A DNA stretch of 64,000 bases from an uncultured Acidobacteriota bacterium (lineage in GTDB: Bacteria; Acidobacteriota; Blastocatellia; RBC074): NCBI GenBank assembly GCA_963699175.1, contig OY969418.1, positions 7,325,352-7,389,351 on the forward strand. Direction: 5' to 3'. Below are positions 1,172 to 55,461 of this stretch, piece by piece. Within the stretch, counting starts at the first letter, position 1. Each line of letters begins with the position of its first letter. The translations under genes and the position numbers were made by a program. The notes beneath the pieces are model-generated. The model was given only the letters and a program-made list of their open reading frames with translations, had not been told where the DNA came from and did no database searches.

Positions 1172-2119
1172 ATGAACTGCCCACACTGCGAAAGCGACCA
1201 GACAAAGCGATTCGGCAAAGACCGCAAAGGCAATCAGCGTTTCCGTTGCCTAGCTTGTGGCAAGACCTTTCAGCCCGAACGCGACAAGCCGCTTGGTGAG
1301 ATGACGCTGGCGTTGGATAAGGCAGAAGCCGTGTTGCGCCTCTTGGTCGAAGGTTGCAGCATCCGCACGACTGAGCGCATCACTGGCGTTCACAAAAATA
1401 CAATCTTCAGTTTGCTTGAAACGGTTGGCGAGAAGTGCGCGATTCTGTTGGCTGAGAAGATTCAGAACGTGCGCGTGTCTCAAGTTCAATGCGATGAAAT
1501 TTGGGGCTTTGTCGAGATGAAGGAAAAGACCAAAAAGAATAAGCCTAACGCCAACGATACGGCGGGCGATGCTTGGTGCTATATCGCAATCGAGCGCACT
1601 AGCAAGCTGATTCTCGCTTGGCACTTGGGCAAGCGCACAATGCAAGACACGGTGCAATTCACAGAGAATCTAGCGCACGCCACCACTGGCAACTTTCAAA
1701 TCAACTGTGATGGTTTCCCCTGCTACAAAGAAGCGATTGAATTCAGCTTTGGCGCAGATGTGGACTTCGCGCAGATCGTCAAGATTTTCGGTTTGCCCGA
1801 AGGTGACGAGCGCCGCTACTCGCTGCCGGTAGTGACAGGCGTTAAGAAGGTGGTAGTGTCGGGCAGTCCTGATTTAGAGACTGCAACCACGAGCCACGTT
1901 GAAAGGCAAAACTTGACCGTCAGAATGCAGATGCGGAGAATGACTAGATTGACCAACGCCTTCAGCAAGAAATTTATCAATCTGCGGTATGCCTACGCGC
2001 TGCACTTTTTCCACTACAACTTTATCCGTGTGCATTCGTCGTTGCGCTGTACACCCGCGATGGAAGCGAAGCTGAGCAATCACATTTGGACGTGGAAAGA
2101 ACTGATAGGTTCGTTGTAA
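1172..2119 (+). mobile_element. IS1-family transposase (single fused InsAB-like ORF, 315 aa)
   Basis: N-terminal Zn-finger CPHC...CLAC. QCDEIWGFV matches the IS1 InsB DEMWS/GYV motif. C-terminal SHVERQNLTVRMQMRRMTRLTNAFSKK...HFFHYNFIRVH matches the IS1 InsB ERHNLxLRQ...LxRKTLxFSKS...HYN region. Confidence 0.8.
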
Positions 2120-8376: not shown

Positions 8377-10161
8377 CTAGGGAGTCTTTGCATCTAGCGC
8401 AACACGGAAACCAATATCGGAGTCACCTTTGTTGGATGGGAACCCAATACGAGTGGCGGAGCGGCAGTGGATAGATTTGGCACTCCACGCACCGCCACGC
8501 AGCACTATGTAGAGCACTAAGCTATTTGACTCTCCGCCGCTCGGCCAAGTTGAGCCATCGGTTGGCGCACCTTTATAGTTCTCATGCCAACCATCCTGGC
8601 ACCATTCCCACACATTGCCGTGCAGATCGTAAAGTCTGAAGCGATTCGGCAGTTTCTTTCCGACCGGATGCGTATTTTTTTCAGCGTTGTCAGCGAACCA
8701 AGCTATTGCATTAAGGTCGTCTGCATAATCGCCCGCACGGCAGGCATACTCCCATTCGGCCTCGCTGGGCAGACGATACGCCTTGCCGGTGTGCTGGCTG
8801 AGTCGCCTGCAAAACCTCGTGGCGTCCTCCCATGAGACCTGTTCGACCGGGCGATTGAGATCGCCTTTGAATTGGGACGGATTGTTGTCCATCACCGCTT
8901 GCCATAGCGCTTGCGTCACTTCGTGTTGGCCAATGTAAAAGTCAGAGAGAGTGACGGGGTGCTGGGGGTATTCGGCAATGTTGCCCTGTCCGTCGGGCGA
9001 ACCCATCTTGAACAAACCACCCGTCACACGGATCATTGTCAGATTGGCGCCATTGATCGGTTCGGTGAACTCCGGTCCGGTCGCGGGTCGCAGTTGCCCT
9101 TTTTCAGGCAACTCTCGTTCTTTAACCGGCTTTTGCCACAACCAATAGCCAATTCCCATCACCGCTTGTAACCCGACGAACACTAACGCCAGCAGCCACG
9201 ACCAGCGCGGTGCAGGACTGACGGCCTGTGCATTCATCGCAATCAGGCGCTTGTGGTACGGGGCAGCAGTATCAACAATGGGTGTGGATATTTCAGTCAT
9301 TGGTGTCAGGCAGAACGTCTGCGGCGAGGATTGCAGCTTGGTCACTGGCGGCGGCGCAATGTCAAGCTTAGGATACGTCAATGCAGCGCGTAACTCAGCA
9401 GCAGTGCGATAGCGCACCACTGCGTCCTTCTGCAACGATCTGGCGACGATCTCCTGCAACCATACAGGTACAGTGATTGGCAGAGGCTCCTGCTCTTCGT
9501 CGCGGATCGCGCCCATCAATTCGACCAGATCATGGCCTAAGAAGGGCAATTGTCCGCTCAGCAATTGGTACAATAGCACACCGACCGACCACAGATCAGT
9601 TTGTTCGTTCCGCTTACGCTGAAACGCTTCGGGAGCCATATAGACCGGTGTCCCAGCCATCACCACGCTATAACTATTAGATCTGAGCATCCGCGAAATG
9701 CCGAAATCGGCAATGCGTGGCGTCTCGCCCTGCAACAGGATGTTGGCCGGTTTCAGATCGCGGTGGATGATCTTGCGCGTGTGCAGGTATTCCAGCCCAG
9801 CCAGAATGCCGCGCGCCATCTCTACCGCGGCCTCGACCGAAGGCGCGCGTCCGCCGTGCCGTTTCAGCCACTCTTCCAGCGAACCATCGGGTGCGTACTC
9901 GCTGGCGATCACGACGTGCTCCCCGTACACACTGGCTTCAATAATCGGCAGCACGTTGGTGTGGCCGCTCGCGGCAATCCAGATGTCTGCTTCCTGCCGG
10001 ATGGCATCAAGGTCCAGGTCGTCGTCGAGCGGAATCTTTAGTGCGACCTCGCGGGCGGCCAGTGCCGTAATGTTCTGTGCCAACCAGACCTCGCCGAACG
10101 CGCCTTTGCCGAGTTTGCGGATGAGTTGATATGGGCCAATGCGGTCGTTGGCTTTAGGCAT
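8377..10161 (-). CDS. Ser/Thr protein kinase - TM - formylglycine-generating-enzyme (FGE/SUMF1) domain fusion
   Basis: N-terminal kinase: GKGAFGEV, HRDLKPANIL, DFG. One hydrophobic TM segment (WSWLLALVFVGLQAVMGIGYWLW). C-terminal FGE-sulfatase domain: YRLPSEAEWEYACRAG, NVWEWCQDGW, LRGGAWS. Confidence 0.85.
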   Translation of the reverse strand: MPKANDRIGPYQLIRKLGKGAFGEVWLAQNITALAAREVALKIPLDDDLDLDAIRQEADIWIAASGHTNVLPIIEASVYGEHVVIASEYAPDGSLEEWLKRHGGRAPSVEAAVEMARGILAGLEYLHTRKIIHRDLKPANILLQGETPRIADFGISRMLRSNSYSVVMAGTPVYMAPEAFQRKRNEQTDLWSVGVLLYQLLSGQLPFLGHDLVELMGAIRDEEQEPLPITVPVWLQEIVARSLQKDAVVRYRTAAELRAALTYPKLDIAPPPVTKLQSSPQTFCLTPMTEISTPIVDTAAPYHKRLIAMNAQAVSPAPRWSWLLALVFVGLQAVMGIGYWLWQKPVKERELPEKGQLRPATGPEFTEPINGANLTMIRVTGGLFKMGSPDGQGNIAEYPQHPVTLSDFYIGQHEVTQALWQAVMDNNPSQFKGDLNRPVEQVSWEDATRFCRRLSQHTGKAYRLPSEAEWEYACRAGDYADDLNAIAWFADNAEKNTHPVGKKLPNRFRLYDLHGNVWEWCQDGWHENYKGAPTDGSTWPSGGESNSLVLYIVLRGGAWSAKSIHCRSATRIGFPSNKGDSDIGFRVALDAKTP

Positions 10162-12470: not shown

Positions 12471-12685
12471 AGTAAGACTCTACGGTTGAAACTTTCGTTG
12501 AGTTGCAAGGGAGCGATTATAGAGAGCGACAGAGAGGTGGGCAAAAGGCGCGAGGATGTAGAAGTGCGGTACGGGGAGCGGTAGCGACCCGGTTCCCCGC
12601 ATTGGAAATAGCTGGAGTAACCAGGTCGCCACCGCTCCCTGTACCGCACCGGCGGCGTTTTTCGTATACACAATTGCAAGCTGAC

Positions 12686-19034: not shown

Positions 19035-19132
19035 GTACCGTAGACTGTCAGTCTGCGGAAGACTCAGTTTTTTACCCACTGGAACCGAAGGGCACGACAC
19101 CAAGTCTTCCGCAGACTGACAGTCTACGGTAC
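19035..19132. repeat. 29-bp perfect inverted repeat with nested palindromes between convergent genes
   Basis: GTACCGTAGACTGTCAGTCTGCGGAAGAC ... GTCTTCCGCAGACTGACAGTCTACGGTAC. Each arm itself contains the palindrome TAGACTG-t-CAGTCTA. T6 in the spacer. Confidence 0.7.
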
Positions 19133-24710: not shown

Positions 24711-25309
24711 AACCCTATTTGCAATTGAAGCGGAAACGGTCGGTTACTGTACCGCACCAAGGTTGCCTGTTCCAATTTAGATAGCTTGCGCTACGCTGGT
24801 GAGGCCAAAGCCCGGCCACTTTATCAAAAATACCATTGACCGGCTTGCGTCCGGCACACTAGAATTCGCCCGTATCAGCAGATCTACTCATAAAAAGATA
24901 GAACGTCGCGGTTGGCGAGCCGCTATTTGCCAAAGATTTGTTGATGCCCGTGCGTAGCCAAGCTTGGCACTGTTAGCTGTCATCTAGCCCCGGCCAGAAC
25001 CGGCTTTGTTTCGCGGTGCTGATAAGCGCTACGCCTCCTTCACAAGATTCGTCCGATTAGCCGATACCCGGCAGGCGCATCGCAGTAGGAACTCGTAGAG
25101 CAGAGAGGGTACGCCGAGGTATCGCCCCGAAATCATCCTTTCTTATCGGTCTTCTCAAAGACCCCGTTGAGAGCCACTCTGTTGTTGCCCCGCAATCATC
25201 GTGAGGTTTGAAATGATTGTGCGGAATCGAGCCGCGCCCCATCCGCAGTGGCGCGCACTCGCCGCCAGCAAGCACGTGTAGCGCATTTGCAACCAAATGG
25301 GAGTCCAAG

Positions 25310-28300
25310 ATGAAGAACTCGCGTCAAGCCGCTCAGTGGAGCGTCCGTAACAAATTTCAGCAACTTTTCCGCCGCTTCAAGCAGCGCCCGCTGCAATGGG
25401 GTGTTTGGGGAGCGCTCGTGTTGGTCGGCGCCGCGTGGCTGGGCAACGCCGCGTGGCAACACGTCGCAGCGCAGCAGGTGCAATTCAACATCAACACGGT
25501 GGTCGGCAGCAGCACCACTTCTGGCCTGGTCGCCGATCTGAAGAACGCGCGTGGCGTGGCGGCGGCCAGCGCCACAGTCTTTTACATTGCGGACACAGGC
25601 AATCACGTGGTGCGGCGCGTGGATACTACGACCAACAGTGTCACGGTTGTGGCCGGTCAAGTCGGCTTGGCGGCCACTGATCCACTTCTTGCCAACGGAG
25701 ACGGTGGCGCGGCGACCAGCGCACGCTTGCGCGAGCCGTATGATGTGGCGGTGGATGTTTCCGGCGATCTCTACATTTCCGACACGGGCACTCACAAAAT
25801 TCGCAAAGTGACATTGGGCAGCCAGCCCGGCAATCCTATTATCTCGACGATTGCAGGCAACGGTAATCCCGGCCTCGATACGGCGATTGCTGGCGCTAGC
25901 TTCAGCGACCCACGCGGCCTGACCTACAGTTCCGCTGGCAGTGGCACACTCTACGTCGCTGACTCGGCCAATCATCGAGTCGTTGCGCTCACGGGGCTGG
26001 CCACTCCAACACCTATTTTACAGCTCATCGCGGGCAACGGCTCTCCGGGTAGTGATGGCGACACCGGCCCTGCGGCGGTGGCTTTTCTCAATGGCCCGCG
26101 TGGCGTAGCCATAGACGCTACCAACCGCGTTTTTATTGCCGACACTGGCAACAATAAAGTCCGCGTCGTTACCACCATCAGCGGGAATTCTACGATTGAT
26201 ACTTACGCGGGCACGGGCACGCCGGGTTTCGACCAGGACGGCAACATGGCCAACACGAGTCAACTCAATGCGCCTTATGACGTAGTGGTGGACGGGGCCA
26301 ACGTTTATATCAGCGATAACGCCAATAATCGTATCCGCAGAGTTGATGGCGCAGGCTTCATCTCGACCGTCGCGGGGCGCAATGGGAGTGGTTTCAGCGG
26401 CGACGGCACGCCAGCGACGAATTTCACGCTCAGTTTTCCGAGCGGCATGGTCTTCGTCAGCAACAGCGTGGTCTTTATGGATACGGGCAACCGGCGGCTG
26501 CGGCGTGTGGCAGGGACATCGCTCACCACAATCGTGAGCGATGGCTCCGGCGGCTTTGCCGGTGAAAACGTAGCGGCGACACAAGCGCGGCTCGATGGCC
26601 CGTCGGCTATCACTGTGGATACGCAGGGCAACTGGTACATCGCCGACACCAACAACCAAGTCATCCGCAAGGTCAACGCCAGTGATGGCAAGATCAACAC
26701 GATTGCCGGTATGCCTGGCGTGGCTTCAACTGATCCGGTCGCTGCCAACGGTGACGGTGGCCAGGCGAACATGGCCACGTTCAAATCTCCGTCAGGTGTG
26801 GCGGTTGACGCAACCGGGAACATCTTCGTGGCCGATACTGGCAACAAGCGTATCCGCCGGATTGATCGCAACACCAACATTATTACTACGGTGATGGGCG
26901 TAGTTGGCAATGCGCTCATTGGCTTTGCGGGCATTCCAGCCTTGCTCGAGCCAATTGGTGTGGTGGTGGACAGTCAGAATAACCTTTACGTGTCGGATGC
27001 CTCACAGCACATCGTTATTGCGCAGAGCGGAGCCGTAACTCCAACCAAAGTCTTCATCGCAGGCAAGGCCAATATGCCCGGCGCCAGTGGTGATGGTGGC
27101 AATGCGGAGAACGCTCGGCTCAATCGTCCCACGGGCATTGCGCTAGCCGGCGGCATCCTCTACGTCGCCGACACCAACAATCATCGCATTCGCAAGATCG
27201 AAAACATCAACGGCATCTTCCAGATTTCCAGCCTCGTGCCGAAGAGTGCGGGCACCATTCAAATCGTCCCGCGTCCGGGTTTTGAAGGTGACGGCGGCAA
27301 CGCCGATTTCGCAAAGCTCAATTCGCCCACTGGCGTGGCCGTGGACAGCGCGGGCGCTCTTTATATCTCGGATCGCGGCAACAATCGCATCCGCCGCGTT
27401 GCTCCCGGCACTGACCCTTTGTCAGGTAATCCAGCGAATATCATCACTACCGTTATCGGCAACGGCGAAGTCGGCTTCAGCGGTGACGGCGGCCCGGCAA
27501 TAGCGGCAGCTTTGGGCTTGCCGCTTAATATTGGCGTGACCAGCACGGGCGAGATTTTGGTGGCCGATACCGGTAACAACCGCATTCGCCGGGCCGTGCA
27601 ACCGCCAAACGTCAAACCGACTTTGACCCACCCTGGCAACAAAAACACGACTGAGGGACAGGCGCTCGGTTTCACCTTGCAGGGCAGCGACTCGAACGCA
27701 GGGCAAACGCTGACTTATGCAATGAACTTTACCCCGGCACTCTCGCCATCAACTCCGGCGGAGAAAGTGCCCACACTCAATGCCGCAACGGGCGCATTCT
27801 CGTGGACGCCGGCGGCTGATGTGGCGAGCAGCGGTACGCCCTCGGTGCAATTCCAATTCACCTTTACTGTCACTGACAACGGCAGTCCGACGCTGACGAG
27901 CGATCCGGTGACGATCACCATCACGGTCAACAACACCAATGGCGCGCCGATCGTAAATGCCGGCACGATTCCGACCACGCTCGAAGCGACTGCGGCCAAC
28001 GGCGCGCAATTGCAGCTCAACGGCACGGCCACCGATCCCGATGGCGATACGCCGCTGGCCATCATCTGGACTGACACGCGTCCGGGCCAGTCAGCGGTGC
28101 AGATTGCCAACCAATTAAGCCCGACCGTCACGCTCGCGCTCGGTCAACATTCGCTTGTGCTGACTGCCAGCGACGGCAAGGGCGGCACGGCCAGCACGCC
28201 TGCCAAAGCGCTCACGGTGCAAGACACGACCGCGCCCGTCTTTTCAAACTTGCCGAGCAACATCAACGATACGATCACGTCGGGCAATAGCAAAGTGGTC

Positions 28301-30703
28301 AACTTCACGCTGCCGACCGCGACCGACGCAGTCTCCGGGCCGCGTCAAGTCACGGCCTCGCCGCCCTCCGGCTCGACCTTCCCGGTCGGCGCGACCACTG
28401 TGACCTTTTCGGCCAGTGACACCGCAGGCAACACGCGCACGGCGACGATTACGGTCACGATCACCTGCGTCGGCACTGGCTGCACAGGTGGCGGGCCTAA
28501 CCCGAACGCGATGGCTTTCACCATCTCAGCCTTCGCCGGCAACGGCAACTTCGGCGTAAGCGGCGACAACGGCACGGCGAACGCGGCAACTTTGAAAGAG
28601 CCGCGCGGCATAGCGATGGATGGCGCGAATAACGTCTACATCGCCGACCAGGAAGCGCACACCATCCGCCGCGTCAATGCGCAGGGCATCATCAGCCTCT
28701 TCGCGGGCAACGGCCAGAAAGGCTTCTCGGGCGACAGCGGCGCGGCGGCAAACGCGCGCTTCAACAATCCGACCGGTCTCGTCGTAGATGTGACGCGCAA
28801 CCTGCTCTACGTCGCCGACACCTGGAATCACCGCATCCGCCGGATTGATCTGGCCAACAACACGATCACGACGCTGGCCGGGAATGGCACGGCTGGCTTG
28901 GGCAGCGATGGCGCGGCAGGCAGCACGCCACTCAACTATCCGTCCGCCGTCGCGGTGGATGGCGCGGGTGTCGTCTACGTCGCCGACACCGGCAACAATC
29001 GCGTCGTCAAGATCAGCAGCAACACGCTCACAACCGTCGCGGGCAATGGCCAAGTCGGCAGCAGCGGCGACGGCGGCGCGCCCTTGCAAGCCAAGCTCAA
29101 TCATCCAACTGGCGTAGCCGTGACGACTGATGGCGCGACAATCTTCGTAGTGGATCGCGGTAACAATCGCGTGCGTAAGATTACTGCCAGCGCCATCACC
29201 AACTTTGCGGGCAATGGCACTGCTGCGAGCAGCGGTGACAACGGCCAGGCAACTGCCGCCAGTTTGAACGCGCCGACCGACGTAGCGGTGGATGGCTCCG
29301 GCAACGTCTTCATCACCGATACGGACGGCGAGCGCATCCGCAAGGTCAGCGCGAGCGACAACGTCATTATGACCATCGCGGGCAACGGCACGGCAGGCAA
29401 CGGCGGCGACGATGGCCCGGCGACCAGCGCCACGCTCAACACGCCGACGGCGCTCGTGCGCAACAGTTCGACCGGTGTGATCTTCTTCTGCGACACCGGC
29501 AATCTGCGCGTGCGCCGCTTGCTGCCAGTCGGGCCGACCAATCACACGCCGGTGCCCGATCAAGTGGCGAACATCCAGTTGACCAAGTCGCAGCAACTCA
29601 ATATCGGGCTATCGGCGACTGATTCTGATGGTGATCCGGTCACGTTCACGCTCGTGCCTGCGCTCTCCTTTGTCACGGTCACGAATGCGAACCCTGCCGC
29701 ACGCACGGCGACGCTCTTCATCAATCCGGCGGGCGGCAACGCGGGCGTCTACACCGTACGTGTGCAAGCCGCTGACAACAAAGGCGGCACTGGCCAGACG
29801 CCCGAATTCACCATTACCGTCACTGACCCGAGCGGCCCGACCAACAATCCGCCCACTGCAGTGATGAACATCTTGCCCTCGGTCATAACTGCTCCGAACG
29901 GCCAACAAACCGCTACTGTCAATCTCAACGGCACCAGTTCATCTGACCCGGACGGTGATCCGCTCACCTACGCCTGGTTTGATGGCGCAGCGGCGATTGC
30001 GACTGGGGCAACGGCGACCGTGCAGCTTGGGCCAGGCCCGCATGCAATCAAGCTGGTCGTGACTGACAGCAAGAATGCGACCGGCGCCAGCCCGACGCAA
30101 AACATCACAGTGCAGCTTGCCCAGGCTGGCAATAATCCTCCGACGGCGGTAATCAAGAATCTGCAAGCTTCGTATACGGCCACGAATGGTGCAAACGTAG
30201 TGGTCACGCTTGACGGTTCGGATTCGATGGATCCCGATGGCGATCCACTGTCCTTCAAGTGGTTCGATAACGGCACGGAGATAGCTAACGGTGTAACCCC
30301 GGCTGTCACGTTGGCGCTCGGCCAACACAGCATCAAGGTCCTTGTGAGTGATGATAAGGGCGCGAGTGCTGAGAGTGCATCGCAGACGGTCACAGTTACA
30401 GCTTCGCAGGGCGGGTCTGAACTGGACATCACCACCGTCTCGCCTGATTCCGGCAGGCGTGGTCAAACACTTACAATCACCGTGAATGGTCAAGGCTTCG
30501 TCCAGGGGTGTTCGGTCAGAATTTTCAAGGGCGGACTCCCAAGCCAGGTTGGCATCACGACCACGACTACCTTTATTTCGAGCACGCAACTGTCGGTGAA
30601 GGTGGTCATTTCGGAGCAAGCACAGGTAGGCGCGCGCATCGTCAGTGTCACCAATCCCGGTGGAGCAATGGTGCAGGCGAACGCTTTCTCGGTTTTGCAG
30701 TAG
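25310..30703 (+). CDS. giant (about 1800 aa) cell-surface protein with NHL repeats, HYR, PKD/Ig-like and IPT/TIG domains
   Basis: Start at MKNSRQ with GGGAG SD. N-terminal TM. More than 20 NHL-type repeats (YIADTGNHRIRKI-like). HYR-like segment (TTAPVFSNLP...ATITVTI). DPDGDPL PKD-like units. C-terminal IPT (ITTVSPDSGRRGQTLTITVNGQGF). Confidence 0.85.
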   Translation: MKNSRQAAQWSVRNKFQQLFRRFKQRPLQWGVWGALVLVGAAWLGNAAWQHVAAQQVQFNINTVVGSSTTSGLVADLKNARGVAAASATVFYIADTGNHVVRRVDTTTNSVTVVAGQVGLAATDPLLANGDGGAATSARLREPYDVAVDVSGDLYISDTGTHKIRKVTLGSQPGNPIISTIAGNGNPGLDTAIAGASFSDPRGLTYSSAGSGTLYVADSANHRVVALTGLATPTPILQLIAGNGSPGSDGDTGPAAVAFLNGPRGVAIDATNRVFIADTGNNKVRVVTTISGNSTIDTYAGTGTPGFDQDGNMANTSQLNAPYDVVVDGANVYISDNANNRIRRVDGAGFISTVAGRNGSGFSGDGTPATNFTLSFPSGMVFVSNSVVFMDTGNRRLRRVAGTSLTTIVSDGSGGFAGENVAATQARLDGPSAITVDTQGNWYIADTNNQVIRKVNASDGKINTIAGMPGVASTDPVAANGDGGQANMATFKSPSGVAVDATGNIFVADTGNKRIRRIDRNTNIITTVMGVVGNALIGFAGIPALLEPIGVVVDSQNNLYVSDASQHIVIAQSGAVTPTKVFIAGKANMPGASGDGGNAENARLNRPTGIALAGGILYVADTNNHRIRKIENINGIFQISSLVPKSAGTIQIVPRPGFEGDGGNADFAKLNSPTGVAVDSAGALYISDRGNNRIRRVAPGTDPLSGNPANIITTVIGNGEVGFSGDGGPAIAAALGLPLNIGVTSTGEILVADTGNNRIRRAVQPPNVKPTLTHPGNKNTTEGQALGFTLQGSDSNAGQTLTYAMNFTPALSPSTPAEKVPTLNAATGAFSWTPAADVASSGTPSVQFQFTFTVTDNGSPTLTSDPVTITITVNNTNGAPIVNAGTIPTTLEATAANGAQLQLNGTATDPDGDTPLAIIWTDTRPGQSAVQIANQLSPTVTLALGQHSLVLTASDGKGGTASTPAKALTVQDTTAPVFSNLPSNINDTITSGNSKVVNFTLPTATDAVSGPRQVTASPPSGSTFPVGATTVTFSASDTAGNTRTATITVTITCVGTGCTGGGPNPNAMAFTISAFAGNGNFGVSGDNGTANAATLKEPRGIAMDGANNVYIADQEAHTIRRVNAQGIISLFAGNGQKGFSGDSGAAANARFNNPTGLVVDVTRNLLYVADTWNHRIRRIDLANNTITTLAGNGTAGLGSDGAAGSTPLNYPSAVAVDGAGVVYVADTGNNRVVKISSNTLTTVAGNGQVGSSGDGGAPLQAKLNHPTGVAVTTDGATIFVVDRGNNRVRKITASAITNFAGNGTAASSGDNGQATAASLNAPTDVAVDGSGNVFITDTDGERIRKVSASDNVIMTIAGNGTAGNGGDDGPATSATLNTPTALVRNSSTGVIFFCDTGNLRVRRLLPVGPTNHTPVPDQVANIQLTKSQQLNIGLSATDSDGDPVTFTLVPALSFVTVTNANPAARTATLFINPAGGNAGVYTVRVQAADNKGGTGQTPEFTITVTDPSGPTNNPPTAVMNILPSVITAPNGQQTATVNLNGTSSSDPDGDPLTYAWFDGAAAIATGATATVQLGPGPHAIKLVVTDSKNATGASPTQNITVQLAQAGNNPPTAVIKNLQASYTATNGANVVVTLDGSDSMDPDGDPLSFKWFDNGTEIANGVTPAVTLALGQHSIKVLVSDDKGASAESASQTVTVTASQGGSELDITTVSPDSGRRGQTLTITVNGQGFVQGCSVRIFKGGLPSQVGITTTTTFISSTQLSVKVVISEQAQVGARIVSVTNPGGAMVQANAFSVLQ

Positions 30704-32225: not shown

Positions 32226-32312
32226 GAGCAATTGATAGTTGATGATTGCCAGTTGACAGTTAATTGTTGGGTTTGACCAAACTATCAACTATCAATTGTC
32301 AACTATCAACTA
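32226..32312. repeat. TCAACTATCAA direct/inverted repeat cluster between nadE and pgsA
   Basis: CAATTGATAGTTGA ... TCAACTATCAATTGTCAACTATCAACTA read directly. Confidence 0.5.
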
Positions 32313-34067: not shown

Positions 34068-34280
34068 TCACGCTACGGCGCGATGGCCCTTGGGTTGTGG
34101 AATAGGGCGGTTCAATTCCTGCGCTGTTTCGATCCACTCTTGGATCACTACTTCGAGGTTTGCCAGCGCCTCTTGTCGCGTTATCCCGTCAGCCATACAG
34201 CCGGGCAATTCCGGCGCTTCGGCAAGGAACGCCTGATCCTCTTCGCTCCAGTAAATGTTGACCTCATAGTTATTCGTCAT
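34068..34280 (-). CDS. hicB: HicB-family antitoxin
   Basis: Start at MTNNYEVNIYWSEEDQAFLAEAPELPGCMADGITRQEAL (UPF0150/HicB N-domain pattern). Overlaps hicA by 11 nt. Confidence 0.75.
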   Translation of the reverse strand: MTNNYEVNIYWSEEDQAFLAEAPELPGCMADGITRQEALANLEVVIQEWIETAQELNRPIPQPKGHRAVA

Positions 34281-34545
34281 CTTTCCCCTCGCTTTCTGCA
34301 TTTGCGAGTTGATAACTCACAATGATATGGCGGACTTGTTTGACTTGGTAGGATTTGGCCTGAGCGCCTTTGGGTTGGAGGTTAAGAATTTCAACGACGT
34401 CGTCACGAGTGAAGATGTGATGATCGCCACGAATTCGTTCGGTAAAGCCGAGGCTTTTCAGCAAGCCGCACAACTCATCGAATGGAATGTTAGCATCCGC
34501 AGTGCCGCGCAGTATTTTCAGCAACAGCTTGTAGCGGCGTCCCAT
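34270..34545 (-). CDS. hicA: HicA-family toxin (mRNA interferase)
   Basis: 91 aa. LKSLGFTERIRGDHHIF...QAKSYQVKQV matches the HicA/YcfA pattern. Confidence 0.8.
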   Translation of the reverse strand: MGRRYKLLLKILRGTADANIPFDELCGLLKSLGFTERIRGDHHIFTRDDVVEILNLQPKGAQAKSYQVKQVRHIIVSYQLANAESEGKDDE

Positions 34546-34560
34546 AAGCTCAGTCTGTAA

Positions 34561-34725
34561 TCAATCGGGCCTTTCGTCGCTCAGCAACATTTGATAGGCG
34601 TCACGAATGTTGTCTTCCAACTCGGCTAGTGTCTCACCCTGACTGAAAACCCCAGGAACCTCTTTCAGCCGTCCTATATACCAGCCATCATCTTGCCAAT
34701 ATTCCAAAGTAAAGTGTCTCACCAT
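34561..34725 (-). CDS. second HicB-like (N-domain only) antitoxin-like protein, 54 aa
   Basis: Internal ATG with perfect SD AGGAGG. MVRHFTLEYWQDDGWYIGRLKEVPGVFSQGETLAELEDNIRDAY matches the HicB/UPF0150 fold pattern. Begins 17 nt after the BMC-P stop. Confidence 0.6.
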   Translation of the reverse strand: MVRHFTLEYWQDDGWYIGRLKEVPGVFSQGETLAELEDNIRDAYQMLLSDERPD

Positions 34726-34742
34726 AACTCCTCCTGCGAGAC

Positions 34743-35012
34743 TCAATCCGTCACTTCGACCGTATCAATAATCCCCACCACCGCCGCATCCACCGGACGA
34801 TCTTTCAACCCTTCGGCCAGGCGCGCGCTGCTGCCCGCCACAACCAGCACCTTTTCGCGAAAGCCCGCGCCGACAGTGTCAACCGCGACCAGATAGCTGC
34901 TCTCATCCTCGCCAGTCAGCGTGATGGGACGCACGAGCAGGAGCTTCTTGCCTTCCAAGCGCGGGTCTTTGCGCGTGGCGACGACATTACCGATGATGCG
35001 ACCGATGATCAT
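34743..35012 (-). CDS. bacterial microcompartment vertex protein (BMC-P; EutN/CcmL/PduN family)
   Basis: Start at MIIGRIIGNVVATRKDPRLEGKKLLLV...VAVDTVGAG...VLVVAGSSAR...VDAAVVGIID, the canonical PF03319 pattern. Confidence 0.9.
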   Translation of the reverse strand: MIIGRIIGNVVATRKDPRLEGKKLLLVRPITLTGEDESSYLVAVDTVGAGFREKVLVVAGSSARLAEGLKDRPVDAAVVGIIDTVEVTD

Positions 35013-35087
35013 AAATTTCGAGTAGACAGTAGACAGTAGAAAGAGGTTCAACCTGTCTACAGCCTCCTGTCTCCTGTCTACGATTTC
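35013..35087. repeat. intercistronic GTAGACAG direct/inverted repeat element between BMC-H and BMC-P
   Basis: GAGTAGACAGTAGACAGTAG ... CTGTCTACAGCCTCCTGTCTCCTGTCTAC, same unit family as at 41527..41612. Confidence 0.6.
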
Positions 35088-35375
35088 TTATTTCTTCCGT
35101 GATTCAACGGCGACCGGCAACGCTTCGTCTACCGAGGCGTGCGGGCGCGGGATGACGTGGACGCTGACGAGTTCGCCCACGCGGCGCGCAGCGGCAGCGC
35201 CTGCGTCGGTGGCGGCTTTCACGGCGGCCACGTCGCCGCGCACGATGGCGGTCACAAAGCCGCCGCCGATCTTTTCATAGCCGACCAGCGTCACATTGGC
35301 CGCTTTGACCATCGCGTCCGAGGCTTCGATCATCGCGACCAAGCCTTTGGTTTCGATCATTCCGAGTGCTTCCAT
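35088..35375 (-). CDS. bacterial microcompartment shell hexamer protein (BMC-H; PduA/EutM/CcmK family)
   Basis: [79 protein letters not shown], canonical PF00936. SD AAAGGAA upstream. Confidence 0.95.
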
Positions 35376-35390
35376 CTTTGGGTGTTCCTT

Positions 35391-35591
35391 TCAATCTGCT
35401 TCGTCTTTTTTGGCTTTGATGATTTCGTATCCCGTAACGACTTTGCGCCCGTCGGGATGCTCCGTCCAAATCCAGCGTATCTCTTCGTCTTCCTGCAAAA
35501 CGATGTTGTCCACCAGCGGCAAGGCAGCGGGCTGCCCCGTTTGTGGCGCAACGGCGATGCGGGTTTTCTCTTCTTTTGGCTCTGGTTTCAT
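35391..35591 (-). CDS. small hypothetical protein (66 aa) inside the BMC operon
   Basis: ORF track. 15-nt gap to BMC-H and 22-nt gap to the aldolase. No motif recognised. Confidence 0.45.
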   Translation of the reverse strand: MKPEPKEEKTRIAVAPQTGQPAALPLVDNIVLQEDEEIRWIWTEHPDGRKVVTGYEIIKAKKDEAD

Positions 35592-35613
35592 GCTCTGTTA
35601 CCTCCTCGGCAAT

Positions 35614-36399
35614 TTAACGGCTCAAGAGCCGGGCCATTTCAGTCAATAGCTGGATCAACTCCTCGCGCGTCAATGATACCGCCCCGTCGTTCAGCCGTCC
35701 CACTGCTCCGACGCCGCTGCCGCAAACCTGTCCGGTGCGTGCTTCAACGGGCATCACGCCGTTGCGTTCGCGAATCTCGAAGAGCTTCGGAATTGCATAA
35801 TCAGGAATCGTATTTTCGTTGCCCAGCGTGCGCGCAATGAAGCTGATCTTGCAGGTGTGTTCGAGCGTTTCCAGCTTGTTGAACGCCTTCTCCAACGTGT
35901 CGGCGTAAGCCACTGCGCCGTGATTCGCCATCAACAGCGCATCGTGATATTGCAGAAACGGCTCAATCGCATCGGTCAATTCGCGCGTCGAAGGTGTCCC
36001 GTAAGCCGCCAGTGGCACACAACCCAGCGTCAACACGACCTCGGACAAGATAGCTTTACTCAGCGACAAGCCCGCTACGGCGAAGCCCGTTGCGTGCGGC
36101 GGATGCGCGTGTACGACGGCGTGAATGTCAGGCCGCTGTTCATAAATCACGCGATGCATCGGCCATTCGGAAGAGACTGTATAGGCAGACGGCTCGAGCG
36201 CATTGCCAGCCAGATCAACTACACACATCATCTCCGGCTTCATCCAACCTTTGCTCACGCCCGACGGCGTCGCGATCAGGCGATTCTCGCCGACGCGCAC
36301 GCTGATATTGCCATCGCCTGCGACTAGCAGTCCACGGTCGTAACAGCGCGTGGCGATCTCGACAATCTCTACTTTGACTTTCTGCTCATCAACCATCAT
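35614..36399 (-). CDS. class II aldolase (FucA/RhaD family) with C-terminal encapsulation-peptide-like extension
   Basis: Start at MMVDEQ. GDGNISVR and VVHAHPPHATGFA metal-binding motifs. About 45-aa C-terminal tail: Gly/Ser-rich linker (GQVCGSGVGAVGRLNDGAVS) plus amphipathic helix LTREELIQLLTEMARLL. Confidence 0.85.
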   Translation of the reverse strand: MMVDEQKVKVEIVEIATRCYDRGLLVAGDGNISVRVGENRLIATPSGVSKGWMKPEMMCVVDLAGNALEPSAYTVSSEWPMHRVIYEQRPDIHAVVHAHPPHATGFAVAGLSLSKAILSEVVLTLGCVPLAAYGTPSTRELTDAIEPFLQYHDALLMANHGAVAYADTLEKAFNKLETLEHTCKISFIARTLGNENTIPDYAIPKLFEIRERNGVMPVEARTGQVCGSGVGAVGRLNDGAVSLTREELIQLLTEMARLLSR

Positions 36400-36415
36400 C
36401 AACCATCTGGCAATC

Positions 36416-37117
36416 TCAAAGCGCCTGACCATTCTCTGCGCTGGCAAACCGAAATAGATCGAGGTGATTGACCGTTACGGCCTCCTCGCTCGGATGCGCC
36501 AGGAAATAAGAAAGGCTTTCCAACGAGACCGACAAGTCAACGTTCTTCACCTTCACGCCCGGCTTTGGGTTGAGCACGATGGGGGCGAAGTTGAGCACGG
36601 CCTTGATGCCCGCTTCGGTCACGCGGTCTAGTACTTGTTGTGCGGCAAAGGCAGGCACGGCAATCAAGACGATCTCAATTGTTTCGCGCTCGATAACTTC
36701 GGGCAGCCGCTCGGTCGAAAGAATCTCCAAGCCGTTGGCCGCGCGCGTCCCGATCTTGCTCGGCTCGTCGTCAAAGAGCGCCACCAGGCGGAAAGCAGCG
36801 CGATTGAAGCCCTGATATTTTGCCAACGCCAAGCCCAGATTGCCGACGCCGACGATGGCGATGCGCCGCTCGACGTTCAAGCCTAGGATCTGTTGCAAGT
36901 GTCGGCGCAGTTCTTTGACGTAATAGCCCACGCCGCGCACGCCGAATTCGCCGAAGTAGGCCAGGTCTTTGCGGATTTGCGCCGAATTCAAATTGAACTG
37001 TTCGGCCAACGTCTGCGACGAAACCGTCTCGATGCCTGCGCTTTCCAATTCGCTCAAACAGCGCAGGTAGACTGAAAGGCGATTGGTGGTGAGTTCCGAA
37101 ATCTTCTCTGTCTTCAT
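36416..37117 (-). CDS. rex: redox-sensing transcriptional repressor Rex
   Basis: Start at MKTEKISELTTNRLSVYLRCL (wHTH). Rossmann IAIVGVGNLGLAL. Overall Rex layout (about 230 aa). Confidence 0.85.
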   Translation of the reverse strand: MKTEKISELTTNRLSVYLRCLSELESAGIETVSSQTLAEQFNLNSAQIRKDLAYFGEFGVRGVGYYVKELRRHLQQILGLNVERRIAIVGVGNLGLALAKYQGFNRAAFRLVALFDDEPSKIGTRAANGLEILSTERLPEVIERETIEIVLIAVPAFAAQQVLDRVTEAGIKAVLNFAPIVLNPKPGVKVKNVDLSVSLESLSYFLAHPSEEAVTVNHLDLFRFASAENGQAL

Positions 37118-37335
37118 CTGGGGATTGCTATGCGGTGCTTCGATCAAATGCTTTAGAGTCTGCTCTATTAAACGAGCAGCAACGATAACGCAGGCTCAAC
37201 AAGACTGTCAACGCGCTGTTCTGACGGCCTTTCTGTGCAAGGCTGAAGTGCAAATTGACAGCTTGTGTAGGCGCTGCGTAAACTCCGAAGGCGGTTGTCC
37301 GTGACATCTTTGACGGACGGCGAACAGGAGCAGCA

Positions 37336-37950: not shown

Positions 37951-39416
37951 GTGGGAGCACGCATGATGTCACCAGGCTACAAATGGAAACCCATCGAAGA
38001 TTTGCCGGAGGATTGGCCAAAACTCGCTTCTAGCGAATTGGCCGGTCTGTTTGCTGTCTGGAAAGAGCAAGCCGTGCAGTTGAAAGACTCGCCTGCCTAT
38101 CGAGAATTTCAGGTGCGCTTGCGTCGTGAATGGGCCATTGAAACTGGCATTATCGAAGGGCTGTACGACATTGATCGCGGGGTCACGCGCACTTTGATCG
38201 AGCGCGGATTGCACGCTAGCCTCATTGCGCACGGCGACGCCAACAAACCGGCGGAAGAGATCATTCCCATGCTCAAAGATCACGAAATGGTGGTCGAAGG
38301 GCTGTTTGATTTCGTTGGCCAGCAACGCCAGCTCTCGACCTCATACATCAAGCAAGTTCACCAAGCTCTAACCACCCATCAGGAGACTGCCAAAGGTATA
38401 GACAGTTTGGGACAGCCCACGCAAATTCCGTTGCTTCGTGGCGATTGGAAAAAGTGGCCTAACAACCCGACACGGCCTGATGGCAAAGTCCACGAGTTTT
38501 GCCCACCTGAACAAGTTGCATCCGAGATGGATCGTCTGATTGAAACGCATCAGCAGCATTTGCAAGCAGGCGTTCCGCCAGAAGTGGAGGCCGCATGGCT
38601 CCATCATCGCTTTACGCAAATTCACCCGTTTCAAGATGGGAATGGACGTGTGGCGCGGGCGCTGGCGTCGCTGATCTTTATTCGTGCTGAGTGGTTTCCT
38701 TTTGTTGTTCACCGTGACGACCGTGCTGATTATATTGATTGCTTGGAAAAAGCGGACGCCAGGGACATGACCTCATTAGTGAAGCTAGTGGGCCAAAGCC
38801 AAAGGAAAGCATTCAATCAGGCTATCAAGCTATCAGATAACGTGTTGTTGCCTGCTGATTCTGTTGAGCAAATTATTTTTGCTGGTGGGCGTTATTTGAA
38901 AGAGAAAGTGGAGAATCAACGGCTACTCGCTGAAGAACTCAAAAGGCTCCACGCTCAATATAAACATGTTGCTGAAACTCTTCAGGCGACTACCAATGAA
39001 CGGTTTGATAAACTTGTCGGCGATTTTGACAACCTCTTGCGTGAGTCTGGCAGCCAGCAGACGATTCGTATAGAAAAATATGGTTATGGATTTGGGCCAA
39101 TGTCCAAAGCGACTTTTGACCATGCAAATGCCAGCATCACAAAGCAATTAGGTTGTGATGCTGATATATGGTCGGATGGCTGGGGCTGTTCCATCCGTAT
39201 AGGAGATAGCATTGGAATGCACTTCGGCTTTTATCGGTTGCTCAACTCAGATTGGCGGATTGCCTGTGGGTTAGCTTACCTGAGAGCAACTAATCCTGAG
39301 CAGTTTTTCCCACTGTGCAGTGAAGCATTTCAATGCTCAACTAGCGAGGATTTGACAACCGTCGTCCCTCGCTTCAAGCAATGGCTTGAGGATGCGCTGA
39401 TCCTCGGCTTTGACTA

Positions 39417-39435
<19 letters not shown>
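37951..39435 (+). CDS. Fic/DOC-family protein (class II-like, with N-terminal inhibitory motif) plus about 250-aa C-terminal domain of unknown function
   Basis: Fic motif [14 protein letters not shown]. Inhibitory (S/T)xxxE(G/N) motif as TGIIEG near residue 70. Markedly AT-richer than flanks. Inserted between ruvA and ruvB. Confidence 0.85.
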
Positions 39436-40472: not shown

Positions 40473-41530
40473 TGCATATCTCCGCTTTCAATTTTGAGCT
40501 GCCCGACGAATTGATCGCGCAGGAGCCGCTGTCGCAACGTGACCAGTCGCGCATGCTCATCGTTGACCGTCGCACACAAAATTGGCGCGACAGCGCGTTT
40601 GCTGAATTACCGTCATTGCTAGCAGCCGGTGATGTGATGGTGCTCAACAATACGCGCGTTTTTCCGGCGCGCCTGCTGGGCCATCGCGTGCTACCCAATG
40701 GTGAACGCGGCGCGCAGGTTGAAGTGTTATTGGCACGGCTGCTCGACGCCGGCAGCAACGAATGGGAAGTGATTGCGCGACCGGGGCGCGCGTTGAAACT
40801 AGGCGCGCAAATCGAATTTGGTCATGGGCGGTTGCGCGGCGAGGTGACCGGGCTGCTCGAAGACGGCAAACGGCGCGTGCGTTTTACCTGTGAGGGCGAC
40901 TTCAATCAAGTGGTGGACGAGCTTGGCAATACGCCGCTGCCGCCCTACATCAAGCGCGCGCAGAGCGAAGAGCGCCGCTTGCACGAGCCGCGTTACCAGA
41001 CCGTTTACGCCCAGCAACGTGGTTCGATTGCCGCGCCGACCGCCGGGCTGCACTTCACCCCACGTGTGCTGGAAGAGCTAAAAGCGCGTGGCGTGCAGTT
41101 TGCTGAGATTACACATCATGTCGGGTACGCGACATTTCAACCCGTGCGCGTCGAGCAGGTCGAAGAGCATCGCATCGAAGCCGAAAGCTATACGATTGAC
41201 GAAACCGCCGCCCGCACGATCAACATTGCAAAAGCAAGTGGCAAGCGCGTTCTCGTAGTTGGAACTACCGGCACGCGTGCGCTCGAAAGCGCGGCCAACG
41301 CAGACGGCATGGTGCGCGCCGAAAGACGCGCGACGGAACTGTTCATCTATCCTGGTTATCGTTTCAAAGCGGCAGATGCGCTCTTGACCAACTTTCACTT
41401 GCCCCAATCGTCGCTGTTGATGTTGGTCGCGGCCTTTGCCGGATGTGAATTGGTGCTGGCCGCCTATCGCCACGCGGTCGCGCAACGCTATCGGTTTTAT
41501 AGTTATGGCGATTGCATGCTGATCTTTTGA
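40472..41530 (+). CDS. queA: S-adenosylmethionine:tRNA ribosyltransferase-isomerase
   Basis: 352 aa. N-terminus MHISAFNFELPDELIAQEP is typical of QueA. Confidence 0.95.
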
Positions 41531-41612
41531 GTAGACAGTAGGCGGTAAACAGTAGAAAACATCTGCCTACTGTCTGCTATCTACTGTCTACCGTCTACTA
41601 TCTACTGTCTTA
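41527..41612. repeat. GTAGACAGTAG / CTACTGTCTAC repeat cluster (direct and inverted units)
   Basis: GAGTAGACAGTAGGCGGTAAACAGTAGAAAACATCTGCCTACTGTCTGCTATCTACTGTCTACCGTCTACTATCTACTGTCTT. Confidence 0.6.
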
Positions 41613-53719: not shown

Positions 53720-53859
53720 GCGTGGGAATGGCCTCGGCAGGGTGGATTTGAAGACTGCTGCGATTGCAAGTTGAAGATTGGTCTTTATAATTTGCAGCCG
53801 GTTGGTTGTGTACATTCACCCATTGATTGCACCATATTGATTGCCGAGGAAGCGACTTC

Positions 53860-55461
53860 ATGCCATCTCCCAACGCGAAAGTGCCGAAAGTTTTTATCAG
53901 CTATAGCCACGATTCGCACGTGCAGCTTGACCGCGTGCTGGCGCTGGCCGACCGGCTGCGCGCAGAAGGGATTGATTGCAACCTTGATCAATATGAATCC
54001 ACGCAGCCGCAACGCTGGCCAAGTTGGATGAACGAACAGTTCCGTGCCGCTGATTTCATCCTGGTTGTCTGTACTGAGATTTATTGCCGTCGCTTCGAGG
54101 GGCGTGAAGAGTCGGGCAAAGGCATGGGCGCGAAATGGGAAGGCGCAATCATTACCAGCGAATTGTACCGGGATGAAACGCTCAATCGGCGCTTCATCCC
54201 AATTATCTTTGCTGCCGAAGATGCCGCACAAGTGCCGGAACAATTGCGGGATTACACGCGCTATCTGGTGACGGACGAGCAGGGCTACGAAGCGCTTTAC
54301 CGACGCCTGACCAAGCAGCCGCGCGTGGTCAAACCGCCGCTCGGACAGGTGCAGACATTCGAGCCGGTCAATAAGCTGAACGCCTTGCCCGACGAGAACC
54401 GGCAACAGGAGTTTCCAGTGATTGAAGCGGAAGTCGCTCACCCATCTTCACATCAGAGTGTCGCCACACTCACTCCATCGCTAGTTACTGAACCTGTTAG
54501 AGCGCCAGTCAAAGAACCGGAGACGCCCTGGCAAGAACAACACGACAAGGTTGAAGTGAAGAACCCAACCCGTCAGCTAGCGCCACTAAGCAGCCGGCGC
54601 AGAAGACTGATCTTAGCAAGCGGCGTATTGGTGATGGGGTTGGCAATCGCAGTAGCTTCCAGCCTGTTGTACAAAAGCAATTCGGTTGTGACTGACAATC
54701 GCAGCCCGACGCCGACAGTTGCCTCACCCAGCCCAGTGGCCAAAGCGACTTTGCGATCATTCACTGCTGATCTCGGCAACGGCGTGAAGCTGGAGATAGT
54801 CGCGTTGCCAGGCGGCACGTTTGAGATGGGGTCGGACAATGGCACGATTGATGAGAAGCCGAAACACAAAGTGACGCTCTCACCCTTTGCCATCGGCAAA
54901 TACGAAGTGACGCAGGCGCAGTGGCAAGCCGTGATGGGCAACAATCCGAGCTACTTCAAAGGCGATAACTTGCCGGTGGAAAGAGTTTCGTGGCTCAATG
55001 TCCAAAAGTTTATTGAGAGGCTCAAGCTCAAGACCGGCAACCAGACTTATTGCTTGCCGACCGAAGCCGAGTGGGAGTACGCGGCGCGCGCCGGTTCGAC
55101 CGGCAAGTACAGCTTCGGCGACGATGCAGCCAAGCTCGGCGAGTATGCTTGGTTTAGGGGAAACTCCGGCGCCAAGACGCATCCCGTTGGGCTAAAGAAG
55201 CCAAACGATTGGGGCTTATATGATATGCAGGGCAATGTATCGGAGTGGTGCCAGGATTGGTACAGCAAGGATTACTACGAGCAAAGTGTGAACAGCACTA
55301 ATCCGCGAGGGCCATCATCAGGCGAGTATCGCGTCCTGCGTGGCGGCCCGTGGTTCATCAACATTGATGATGCGCGCCCCGTCTACCGCGGCTTCTACAA
55401 TCCCGGCGACCGCGACATCAGTGTGGGTTTTCGGGTGGTGGTGGCGCGTTCTCCTTCCTGA
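53860..55461 (+). CDS. TIR-domain - TM - FGE/SUMF1-domain protein (receptor-like architecture)
   Basis: Start ATG 53860 with SD GAGGAAG. N-terminal KVFISYSHDS...FILVVCTE (TIR_2-like). One TM (LILASGVLVMGLAIAVASSLLY). C-terminal FGE domain (YCLPTEAEWEYAARAG, NVSEWCQDWY, LRGGPW). Confidence 0.8.
   Translation: MPSPNAKVPKVFISYSHDSHVQLDRVLALADRLRAEGIDCNLDQYESTQPQRWPSWMNEQFRAADFILVVCTEIYCRRFEGREESGKGMGAKWEGAIITSELYRDETLNRRFIPIIFAAEDAAQVPEQLRDYTRYLVTDEQGYEALYRRLTKQPRVVKPPLGQVQTFEPVNKLNALPDENRQQEFPVIEAEVAHPSSHQSVATLTPSLVTEPVRAPVKEPETPWQEQHDKVEVKNPTRQLAPLSSRRRRLILASGVLVMGLAIAVASSLLYKSNSVVTDNRSPTPTVASPSPVAKATLRSFTADLGNGVKLEIVALPGGTFEMGSDNGTIDEKPKHKVTLSPFAIGKYEVTQAQWQAVMGNNPSYFKGDNLPVERVSWLNVQKFIERLKLKTGNQTYCLPTEAEWEYAARAGSTGKYSFGDDAAKLGEYAWFRGNSGAKTHPVGLKKPNDWGLYDMQGNVSEWCQDWYSKDYYEQSVNSTNPRGPSSGEYRVLRGGPWFINIDDARPVYRGFYNPGDRDISVGFRVVVARSPS

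Follow-up and report, generated by a model that had tools for sequence, protein, structure and literature searches.

Gene content of the locus

The locus described here lies in a 64-kb stretch of DNA from an uncultured Acidobacteriota bacterium of the class Blastocatellia (contig OY969418.1; these 64,000 nucleotides are called the window below) and encodes the shell proteins of a bacterial microcompartment (BMC) together with an aldolase and the redox-sensing repressor Rex. Gene families were called with Pfam and NCBIfam hidden Markov models (HMMs) at curated cut-offs. On the minus strand, from 37117 to 34743, rex, a class II aldolase gene, a small open reading frame (ORF) termed s66, BMC-H, and BMC-P follow in succession, and the products of 233, 66, 95, and 89 residues match called genes, all on one public contig. 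An earlier reading of the window, made from the letters alone (the sequence-only reading), had grouped these five genes on this strand; the four family calls that it contained (PF00936, PF03319, PF00596, and Rex) all clear the curated HMM thresholds. Its intergenic gaps of 15 to 22 nucleotides (nt) hold for rex/aldolase (16 nt), which bears out the tight linkage of the module to rex, as well as for aldolase/s66 (22 nt) and s66/BMC-H (15 nt), but BMC-H and BMC-P are separated by 75 nt that contain a hairpin. The range of 34068 to 37117 given for the locus was too wide: the five genes occupy 34743 to 37117, whereas 34068 to 34746 holds Hic-type ORFs that are not BMC related.

The generic definition of a BMC main locus asks for at least one PF00936 and at least one PF03319 gene, and here there is one of each, both above the Pfam gathering thresholds and 75 nt apart. 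A second shell gene was not found in the 64-kb window; BMC-H and BMC-P are present in one copy each, so the minimal shell set of one H and one P stands as first proposed. Besides the locus, 30 further large ORFs were scanned with Pfam, and among the 39 window ORFs scanned altogether there was no match to AldDh, PduL, Fe-ADH, 2-Hacid_dh, or BMC-T. The usual metabolosome core of aldehyde dehydrogenase (AldDh; PF00171), phosphotransacylase (PTAC; PF06130), and alcohol dehydrogenase was likewise not found beside the shell genes in these 39 ORFs, in agreement with the sequence-only reading.

The presumed signature and cargo enzyme is a class II (FucA-like) aldolase of 261 residues (35614 to 36399, minus strand; 164 bits to PF00596, with the cut-off at 22). 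Its start is uncertain; the ATG at 36399 (261 residues) was adopted and fits the homologues, while the public call for one relative is 272 residues long. More than 7,000 homologues were found, the best 120 of which are 67 to 94% identical over the full length; where a source is named among these 120, the label is Blastocatellia or Acidobacteria. The alignment divides the protein into three parts: an invariant catalytic core, with the Zn-binding residues (His97, His99, and His160), Glu78, and the phosphate-site motifs unchanged throughout; a Gly/Pro-rich linker of variable length; and a conserved C-terminal helix. In the window the amphipathic helix reads LTREELIQLLTEMARLLSR (35617 to 35673, minus strand) and is preceded by the Gly-rich variable linker (about 35674 to 35745); its consensus is (v)TLTRxELvELLxxsarLl. 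A helix behind a variable linker is kept in 24 close and 11 distant homologues, and an exhaustive profile search led to several clusters of aldolases, 36 to 48% identical to the window enzyme, with the same architecture and the LTRxEL motif. The highest hydrophobic moment of the aldolase falls in its last 14 residues, and this motif, of the encapsulation peptide (EP) type, occurs only once in the window. The AlphaFold2 (AF2) model has a helix at residues 245 to 260 with block means of the predicted local distance difference test (pLDDT) of about 65 to 85, behind a linker of low confidence. From architecture and conservation, rather than from the EP HMM of the published BMC catalogue, we infer that the C-terminal helix is an encapsulation peptide, which is a hallmark of the ACI type discussed below. 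The closest solved structures of the aldolase are FucA enzymes (4c24 first, 92 bits), and its best equivalog scores are those of FucA (114 bits; cut-off 264) and OtnC decarboxylase (123 bits; cut-off 250).

BMC-H, a hexamer-forming shell protein of 95 residues (35088 to 35375, minus strand), matches PF00936 with 107.5 bits and the EutM equivalog with 149 bits (cut-off 133). Its closest solved structures are EutM, PduA, and HO-5815, and its sequence shows the lysine of DAMVKAANV as well as an IPRPH motif, as in a BMC-H of the typical kind that ACI loci encode. BMC-P, the pentamer-forming vertex protein of 89 residues (34743 to 35012, minus strand; PF03319, 106.8 bits), is closest to the HO BMC-P 5v74, followed by CcmL. 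Protein Data Bank entry 6qn1 consists of 60 BMC-P and 180 BMC-H chains, so that a shell made from a single type of each is physically feasible. The solved H+P shells, 6qn1 and 6owf/6owg, are recombinant and presumably built from GRM2 or beta-carboxysome proteins, whereas the minimal set in the window is a natural gene complement.

Conservation in Blastocatellia and relation to the ACI type

One genome per species was scanned for related loci, which yielded 80, most of them in metagenome-assembled genomes (MAGs) of Blastocatellia/Acidobacteriota, the phylum to which ACI compartments belong. Counts of the shell genes refer to the 73 loci with sufficient downstream sequence, and counts of rex to the 70 with sufficient upstream sequence. 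The order in the relatives is GNAT←queA←ruvB←ruvA followed by rex→aldolase→(small ORF)→BMC-H→BMC-P→(variable insert)→nadE→pgsA, with BMC-H and BMC-P both present in 71 of 73. A divergent group (L077, L080 to L084) has aldolases about 50% identical to that of the window, and its module sits amid unrelated genes. About sixteen MAGs that hold the locus bear the Firmicutes names "uncultured Heliomicrobium sp." or "Heliobacteriaceae bacterium" (L005, L006, L012, L014, L015, L018, L023, L028, and others); their aldolases are about 78 to 84% identical and the full Blastocatellia synteny is present, and these labels look wrong.

Ratios of nonsynonymous to synonymous substitution (dN/dS), computed against 14 relatives, were 0.11 to 0.18 for rex, 0.05 to 0.15 for the aldolase, 0.03 to 0.09 for BMC-H, and 0.04 to 0.14 for BMC-P; with dS saturated, they can be read only qualitatively. 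The four main genes are under purifying selection, and the module is no relic. Several components of a full ACI locus have been lost, as shown below, which is what a decaying, functionless remnant would look like; such decay is very improbable, given that 71 of 73 species genomes have intact ORFs, that dN/dS is 0.03 to 0.15 for the aldolase and both shell genes, and that the EP helix is conserved.

The ACI type was defined in the BMC catalogue from 125 loci, all of them in Acidobacteria and mainly in subdivisions 4 and 6 (Sutter, Melnicki, Schulz, Woyke & Kerfeld 2021, Nat Commun 12:3809; PMC8217296). Its loci encode a PF00596 aldolase that bears an EP at the C terminus, together with a 2-hydroxyacid dehydrogenase, a BMC-H of the typical kind, and a BMC-P triplet of green-, grey-, and orange-clade members, whose genes are almost always adjacent; there are also unknown proteins, one of which, of about 80 residues, has an N-terminal EP and conserved C-terminal cysteines (PMC8217296). 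The ACI aldolase is most similar to those of the HO and MIC3 types, and the AldDh, from a MIC3-like clade and with an EP near its C terminus, is consistently encoded on a satellite locus (PMC8217296). In the part of the catalogue tree that we consulted, the one Blastocatellia entry found is an ACI main-locus BMC-P of 92 residues in the "kiwi" subclade.

Distant EP-bearing aldolases that share the C-terminal helix sit in full ACI loci, which we obtained by scanning metagenome contigs with these aldolases. The order in full loci is aldolase→BMC-H→P1→P2→P3→Cys-rich small protein→2-hydroxyacid dehydrogenase, where P1 to P3 are the three BMC-P proteins. At least 27 full loci carry a Cys-rich small protein, which in L146 reads MTDDELRALVRAAIARH…CNHCGYCKSMGH, and the 2-hydroxyacid dehydrogenase (PF00389/PF02826) is present in 26 of the metagenome loci. 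Two conserved proteins 3' of the dehydrogenase were considered as further components and set aside: they are the products of neighbouring HhH-GPD glycosylase and cyclophilin genes and do not belong to the BMC. An HMM of the window BMC-P orthologues scored the first BMC-P of full ACI loci at about 110 to 140 bits and the second and third at about 50 to 99 bits; by this comparison the window BMC-P is the orthologue of P1.

The window locus resembles ACI in its restriction to Acidobacteria, in the EP-bearing PF00596 aldolase placed first and followed by BMC-H and BMC-P, and in a main locus devoid of AldDh. It differs in having a single BMC-P, no Cys-rich protein of about 80 residues, and no 2-hydroxyacid dehydrogenase; the window clade, unlike ACI, further has rex directly upstream, a hairpin-bearing H/P spacer of 60 to 130 nt, and, in some lineages, s66. 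The sequence-only reading stressed that AldDh is missing; as ACI consistently encodes this enzyme on a satellite locus, a main locus without it is to be expected and is not unusual. In the full ACI main loci, too, two PROSITE aldehyde dehydrogenase active-site patterns found no match within ±10 kb, although this is a crude test.

Loci of the Pyrinomonadaceae, a family of Blastocatellia, were reached by a search with the second BMC-P of the metagenome locus L163 (L165 is from GCA_025054715.1, and L166 was found likewise). Their order is ruvB←ruvA followed by rex→aldolase→H→P1→P2→P3→Cys-rich protein→PqqD-like. They share with the window the class, the divergent ruvB and ruvA on the left flank, and the order rex, EP-bearing aldolase, BMC-H, and BMC-P1, but in them P2, P3, and the Cys-rich EP protein are retained, as is a PqqD-like gene. 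The genes for H, P1, P2, and P3 abut in L165 and L163, with about 0 to 75 nt between them and without the long hairpin spacer of the window clade. The PqqD-like protein that follows the Cys-rich EP protein (L163, 12380 to 12856; L165, 10953 to 11411) is 152 to 158 residues long and has a Cys-rich C terminus, …CGNICSPANPRTCAPGCTCQGSICV; the two side by side might point to an ACI-linked function in peptide maturation. The Pyrinomonadaceae locus is a clean intermediate between full ACI and the window form.

Whether the locus matches a catalogued type had been thought undecidable from the sequence. However, the aldolase with its C-terminal EP, the aldolase→H→P1 order, and the graded intermediates place it with ACI; set against the catalogue description, it belongs to this type but is missing the triplet, the Cys-rich protein, and the 2-hydroxyacid dehydrogenase. 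Judged from these genes, the window locus is a reduced, rex-linked derivative of ACI and not a separate BMC type, and the genes for P2, P3, the EP-bearing Cys-rich protein, and the 2-hydroxyacid dehydrogenase have been lost from it in this lineage. No description of such a reduced, rex-linked variant was found in the catalogue text, its HMM table, or the other literature searched.

Loss from the locus need not mean loss from the genome, and P2, P3, the Cys-rich protein, and the dehydrogenase may instead have moved to other loci, leaving a normal ACI compartment in pieces. Split arrangements of this kind are catalogued, namely the HO type I satellite (two BMC-P and an aldolase) and the FRAG types (PMC8217296); moreover, the 120 homologues of the L163 P2 that were listed are all at least 74% identical to it, so remoter copies would not be visible among them. 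On the other hand, the triplet genes are almost always adjacent according to the catalogue (PMC8217296), none of these genes lies within ±10 kb of any of the 80 reduced loci, and no match from the source genome is among the P2 homologues listed, a weak point in that all of them are at least 74% identical and Pyrinomonadaceae-like. We consider a fragmented compartment unlikely.

Other compartments with aldolases are less similar. In PVM, PVM-like, and GRM5 (fucose/rhamnose) systems, an encapsulated FucA/RhaD-like aldolase releases lactaldehyde within the shell, which serves as our working model here; however, their loci add AldDh, PTAC, further enzymes, and several shell paralogues, whereas the window has neither AldDh nor PTAC, and its aldolase is only a distant relative of FucA (92 bits to 4c24). 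The HO type I satellite also has a PF00596 aldolase beside BMC-P genes, but it contains no BMC-H and is found in Myxobacteria, and only around one-third of HO aldolases carry an EP-like extension such as that of the window enzyme. Membership in PVM, SPU, or HO was ruled out (no AldDh or PTAC, no DeoC or RpiB, not a myxobacterium, BMC-H present).

The small ORF between the aldolase and BMC-H, s66 (35391 to 35591, minus strand), is preceded by a GAGGAGG ribosome-binding site and encodes a lineage-restricted protein of 66 residues to which no Pfam or NCBIfam family matched. Its conserved core is ...EE.V.W.WTH.PDG...VTGYE..., and AF2 models a disordered N-terminal half and a β-hairpin at residues 36 to 59. 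Homologues occupy the identical position in 11 of the 80 related loci, five database clusters match, and dN/dS of 0.3 to 0.6 indicates weaker constraint; s66 is a real gene, although an accessory one that only some lineages have. The aldolase/BMC-H distance is 15 to 130 nt in most related loci, and in other lineages unrelated small ORFs with no Pfam match fill the slot. Three loci lacking rex (L016, L022, and L024) have there a conserved ORF of 77 to 83 residues, …EEQF.VCLNN.EYPASLELHKIYRVIPDQEAE.DGD…, with no Pfam match, and L082 has one of 72 residues with an amphipathic end, STLDLIADILAS. Identity of s66 with the ACI Cys-rich protein was ruled out, as s66 shows no similarity to it, no Cys, and no N-terminal EP-type helix.

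Rex, the spacer hairpin, and the surrounding genes

The first gene, rex (36416 to 37117, minus strand), encodes an NADH/NAD+-sensing transcriptional repressor of 233 residues with PF06971 and PF02629 domains, which scores over its full length as a Rex equivalog in NCBIfam (NF003993, 257.9 bits with a cut-off of 217; NF003992, 238.6 bits with a cut-off of 226). A promoter-like site, TTGACA-18-TATCGT, was found upstream of it by consensus scan (37182 to 37211, minus strand). In 72 upstream regions of rex homologues, TTGACAG occurs in 63 and CTATCGT in 40, and the two form a single block in the alignment; beyond these promoter hexamers, nothing was recovered from the regions by k-mer and alignment analysis. 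A transcript running from rex to BMC-P likely begins at this site.

In its full-length equivalog match, its GxGxxG Rossmann motif, and its position as the first gene, as in autoregulated rex, the window gene resembles those of the Rex regulons of Gram-positive and other bacteria; it differs in that the operator TTGTGAAnnnnTTCACAA of these regulons was not found near the locus, where no site has three or fewer mismatches. This consensus comes from Gram-positive and other bacteria and may not be the Acidobacterial motif; scanning the whole window with it gave two chance-level matches, both distant from the locus. Across 1.29 Mb of related loci, a Rex-box-like site with two to three mismatches was seen at the rex 5' end in a single subclade, just past the -10 element, and none was seen in the Pyrinomonadaceae loci. 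A link between Rex and a BMC operon was not found in the literature searched, and Rex families are absent from the catalogue text and HMM table.

Adjacency suggests that the BMC operon is under Rex control. Rex may instead be a bystander that owes its position to inherited synteny (ruvBA-rex...nadE-pgsA) and has no part in regulating the BMC genes. A canonical Rex box was found neither 5' of rex nor 5' of the aldolase gene, the flanking housekeeping genes are equally syntenic, the module is retained without rex in 7 of 70 loci, and, where the sequence of an ACI-type metagenome locus extends more than 1.2 kb upstream (39 loci), rex is found only in the Pyrinomonadaceae-like L163, all of which would suit a bystander. 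However, rex lies right upstream of the aldolase gene in 63 of 70 loci, at 16 nt in the window and mostly less than 100 nt in the relatives; it remains 5' of the module in the Pyrinomonadaceae; and the Rex-box-like site that follows the -10 element is present in one subclade. In L082 to L084 of the divergent group, rex is still directly 5' of the aldolase gene although every other flank is different, indicating that the link exceeds an inherited neighbourhood. A bystander role for Rex is possible but rather doubtful.

The H/P spacer (35013 to 35087, minus strand) is an inverted repeat made of tandem GTAGACAG repeats and their complements, with arms at 35022 to 35039 and 35064 to 35081. As RNA it has a minimum free energy of -26.8 kcal/mol (z = -2.6). 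The corresponding spacer of the relatives is occupied by hairpins that are much stronger, reaching -94 kcal/mol, and that consist of lineage-specific heptamer-like repeats; among them, z is below -2 in 49 of 61 loci with a median of about -5.5, compared with medians of +0.2 to -1.9 for the other spacers; z is below -3 in 73% of loci at the H/P spacer versus 17 to 48% at the others. In the Pyrinomonadaceae locus L165, the spacer is absent (gap of 0 nt). This enrichment at the H/P junction suggests a role in lowering pentamer relative to hexamer expression, and one may speculate that the hairpin holds the pentamer well below the hexamer. The repeat unit varies by lineage (GTAGACA, GCAGATT, CAGTGGT, GTTCGCA, and GGACAAG in loci L001 to L084), and no U-tract follows the repeat hairpins. 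Repeat-armed intergenic hairpins are also present in the window at 41530 to 41606, 19035 to 19132, 12564 to 12649, and 32246 to 32309, so that the element class appears to be genome-wide; the hairpins look like a REP-like element family and were matched to nothing described.

Downstream of BMC-P, between it and nadE, lies a HicB-like (61 residues)/HicA (91 residues)/HicB-like (77 residues) cassette of the toxin-antitoxin type (34068 to 34746, minus strand), the first ORF of which overlaps the BMC-P stop codon. Hic genes are found at this junction in 6 of the 80 related loci, the others having transposase genes, DUF4351 genes, or nothing; because the inserts differ between loci, the junction is an insertion hot spot. 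On the other side, a Fic-domain gene (494 residues; 37951 to 39435, plus strand) is inserted between ruvA and ruvB; the insertion recurs in about eight related loci (L019, L022, L030, L048, L049, L073, L076, and L078) and is absent from others. Elsewhere, Pfam identifies ordinary genes in the window (hut genes, uvrB, ruvAB, queA, nadE, proteases, and kinases). Less usual are two FGE-sulfatase (SUMF1-like) fusions, one of SEFIR/TIR with FGE-sulfatase (544 residues; 53827 to 55461, plus strand) and one of a Ser/Thr kinase with FGE-sulfatase (594 residues; 8377 to 10161, minus strand), and an ORF of 1,828 residues (25217 to 30703, plus strand) with repeated Gly/Asn/Thr segments of the NHL-repeat type and stretches that look Ig-like by eye. 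Near the left end of the window there is an IS1-like transposase gene (1172 to 2119, plus strand) with an InsA zinc ribbon and a DDE_Tnp_IS1 fragment.

Interpretation and significance

The locus is probably the main locus of a reduced ACI-type microcompartment, in a form that is typical of a large Blastocatellia clade. Several observations weigh against this interpretation. A single BMC-P was found in the window, as in each of the 80 related loci (±10 kb), by an HMM that is sensitive enough, since it detects P2 and P3 of full ACI loci at about 50 to 99 bits; over the same ranges, no homologue of the 2-hydroxyacid dehydrogenase (E < 1e-5) and no match to the Cys-rich small protein were found. 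The AldDh partner is presumed, the DNA of this genome that was examined being the 64-kb window. With every NCBIfam equivalog below its cut-off, no substrate can be assigned to the aldolase, and the AF2 model of this enzyme is poor overall (mean pLDDT of 55). For the regulatory part, the rex-less loci (7 of 70) and the missing canonical operator count in the same direction, and the H/P hairpin may have come to lie here by chance, as one copy of a repeat element spread through the genome. In addition, experimental characterization of any ACI-type compartment was not found in the literature searched.

The same absences would suit a self-sufficient, aldolase-only compartment, in which the losses of the clade include AldDh as well as P2, P3, the Cys-rich protein, and the dehydrogenase, and the aldolase, BMC-H, and BMC-P genes make up the whole organelle; the enzyme might then run in the condensing direction and trap a reactive aldehyde with dihydroxyacetone phosphate (DHAP) under Rex control. 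No further BMC part is present in the 64 kb or within ±10 kb in the 80 genomes, the three genes of the module move together from one genomic context to another and are all under strong purifying selection, and the accessory shell and cargo genes are clearly lost from the locus. However, the catalogue places the ACI AldDh consistently at a distal site, which makes its local absence uninformative, and the full ACI main loci are likewise without the PROSITE AldDh patterns within ±10 kb, crude as that test is. We give this explanation a low probability. To its fullest form, in which the three-gene module is a complete natural organelle of a clade without encapsulated AldDh, switched by Rex and with its pentamer dosage set by the hairpin, we attach an equally small likelihood; if true, no simpler native catabolic microcompartment would be known, and the clade would be a natural experiment in which the near-universal BMC-P triplet of ACI proves dispensable.

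For the reduced ACI compartment that we favor, the following mechanism can be proposed. A single transcript would start at the conserved promoter upstream of rex and run through rex, the aldolase gene, s66, BMC-H, and BMC-P, and Rex, as adjacency suggests, would hold the operon off at low NADH/NAD+ and release it under reductive or hypoxic conditions. Judging from the protein families, BMC-H hexamers would tile the facets and the single BMC-P would cap the vertices of a small polyhedral shell, and the repeat hairpin between the two genes may, more speculatively, keep pentamer expression far under hexamer expression. The Zn-dependent, FucA-like aldolase, as its sequence architecture suggests, would be recruited into the shell via its C-terminal amphipathic helix and, by analogy to FucA and PVM, would cleave a ketose phosphate to DHAP and an aldehyde there, so that the aldehyde is formed in confinement. 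The aldehyde would be consumed by the AldDh that ACI systems target with an EP, and this enzyme, as other ACI genomes have it, is expected to be encoded at a distance.

With 125 loci, ACI ranks among the larger catalogued BMC types, and it occurs in abundant soil Acidobacteria. A reduced form refines this known type and does not overturn current understanding. It would add a reductive series, from full ACI through rex-linked ACI with the triplet to a rex-linked aldolase with one H and one P, and the natural loss of the triplet bears on why many BMCs hold three pentamer paralogues. The minimal set of cargo, EP, and shell proteins, about 450 residues in total, offers a first construct for heterologous shell assembly and for tests of aldolase function, and Rex and the cellular redox state may provide a testable lead on when ACI organelles form.

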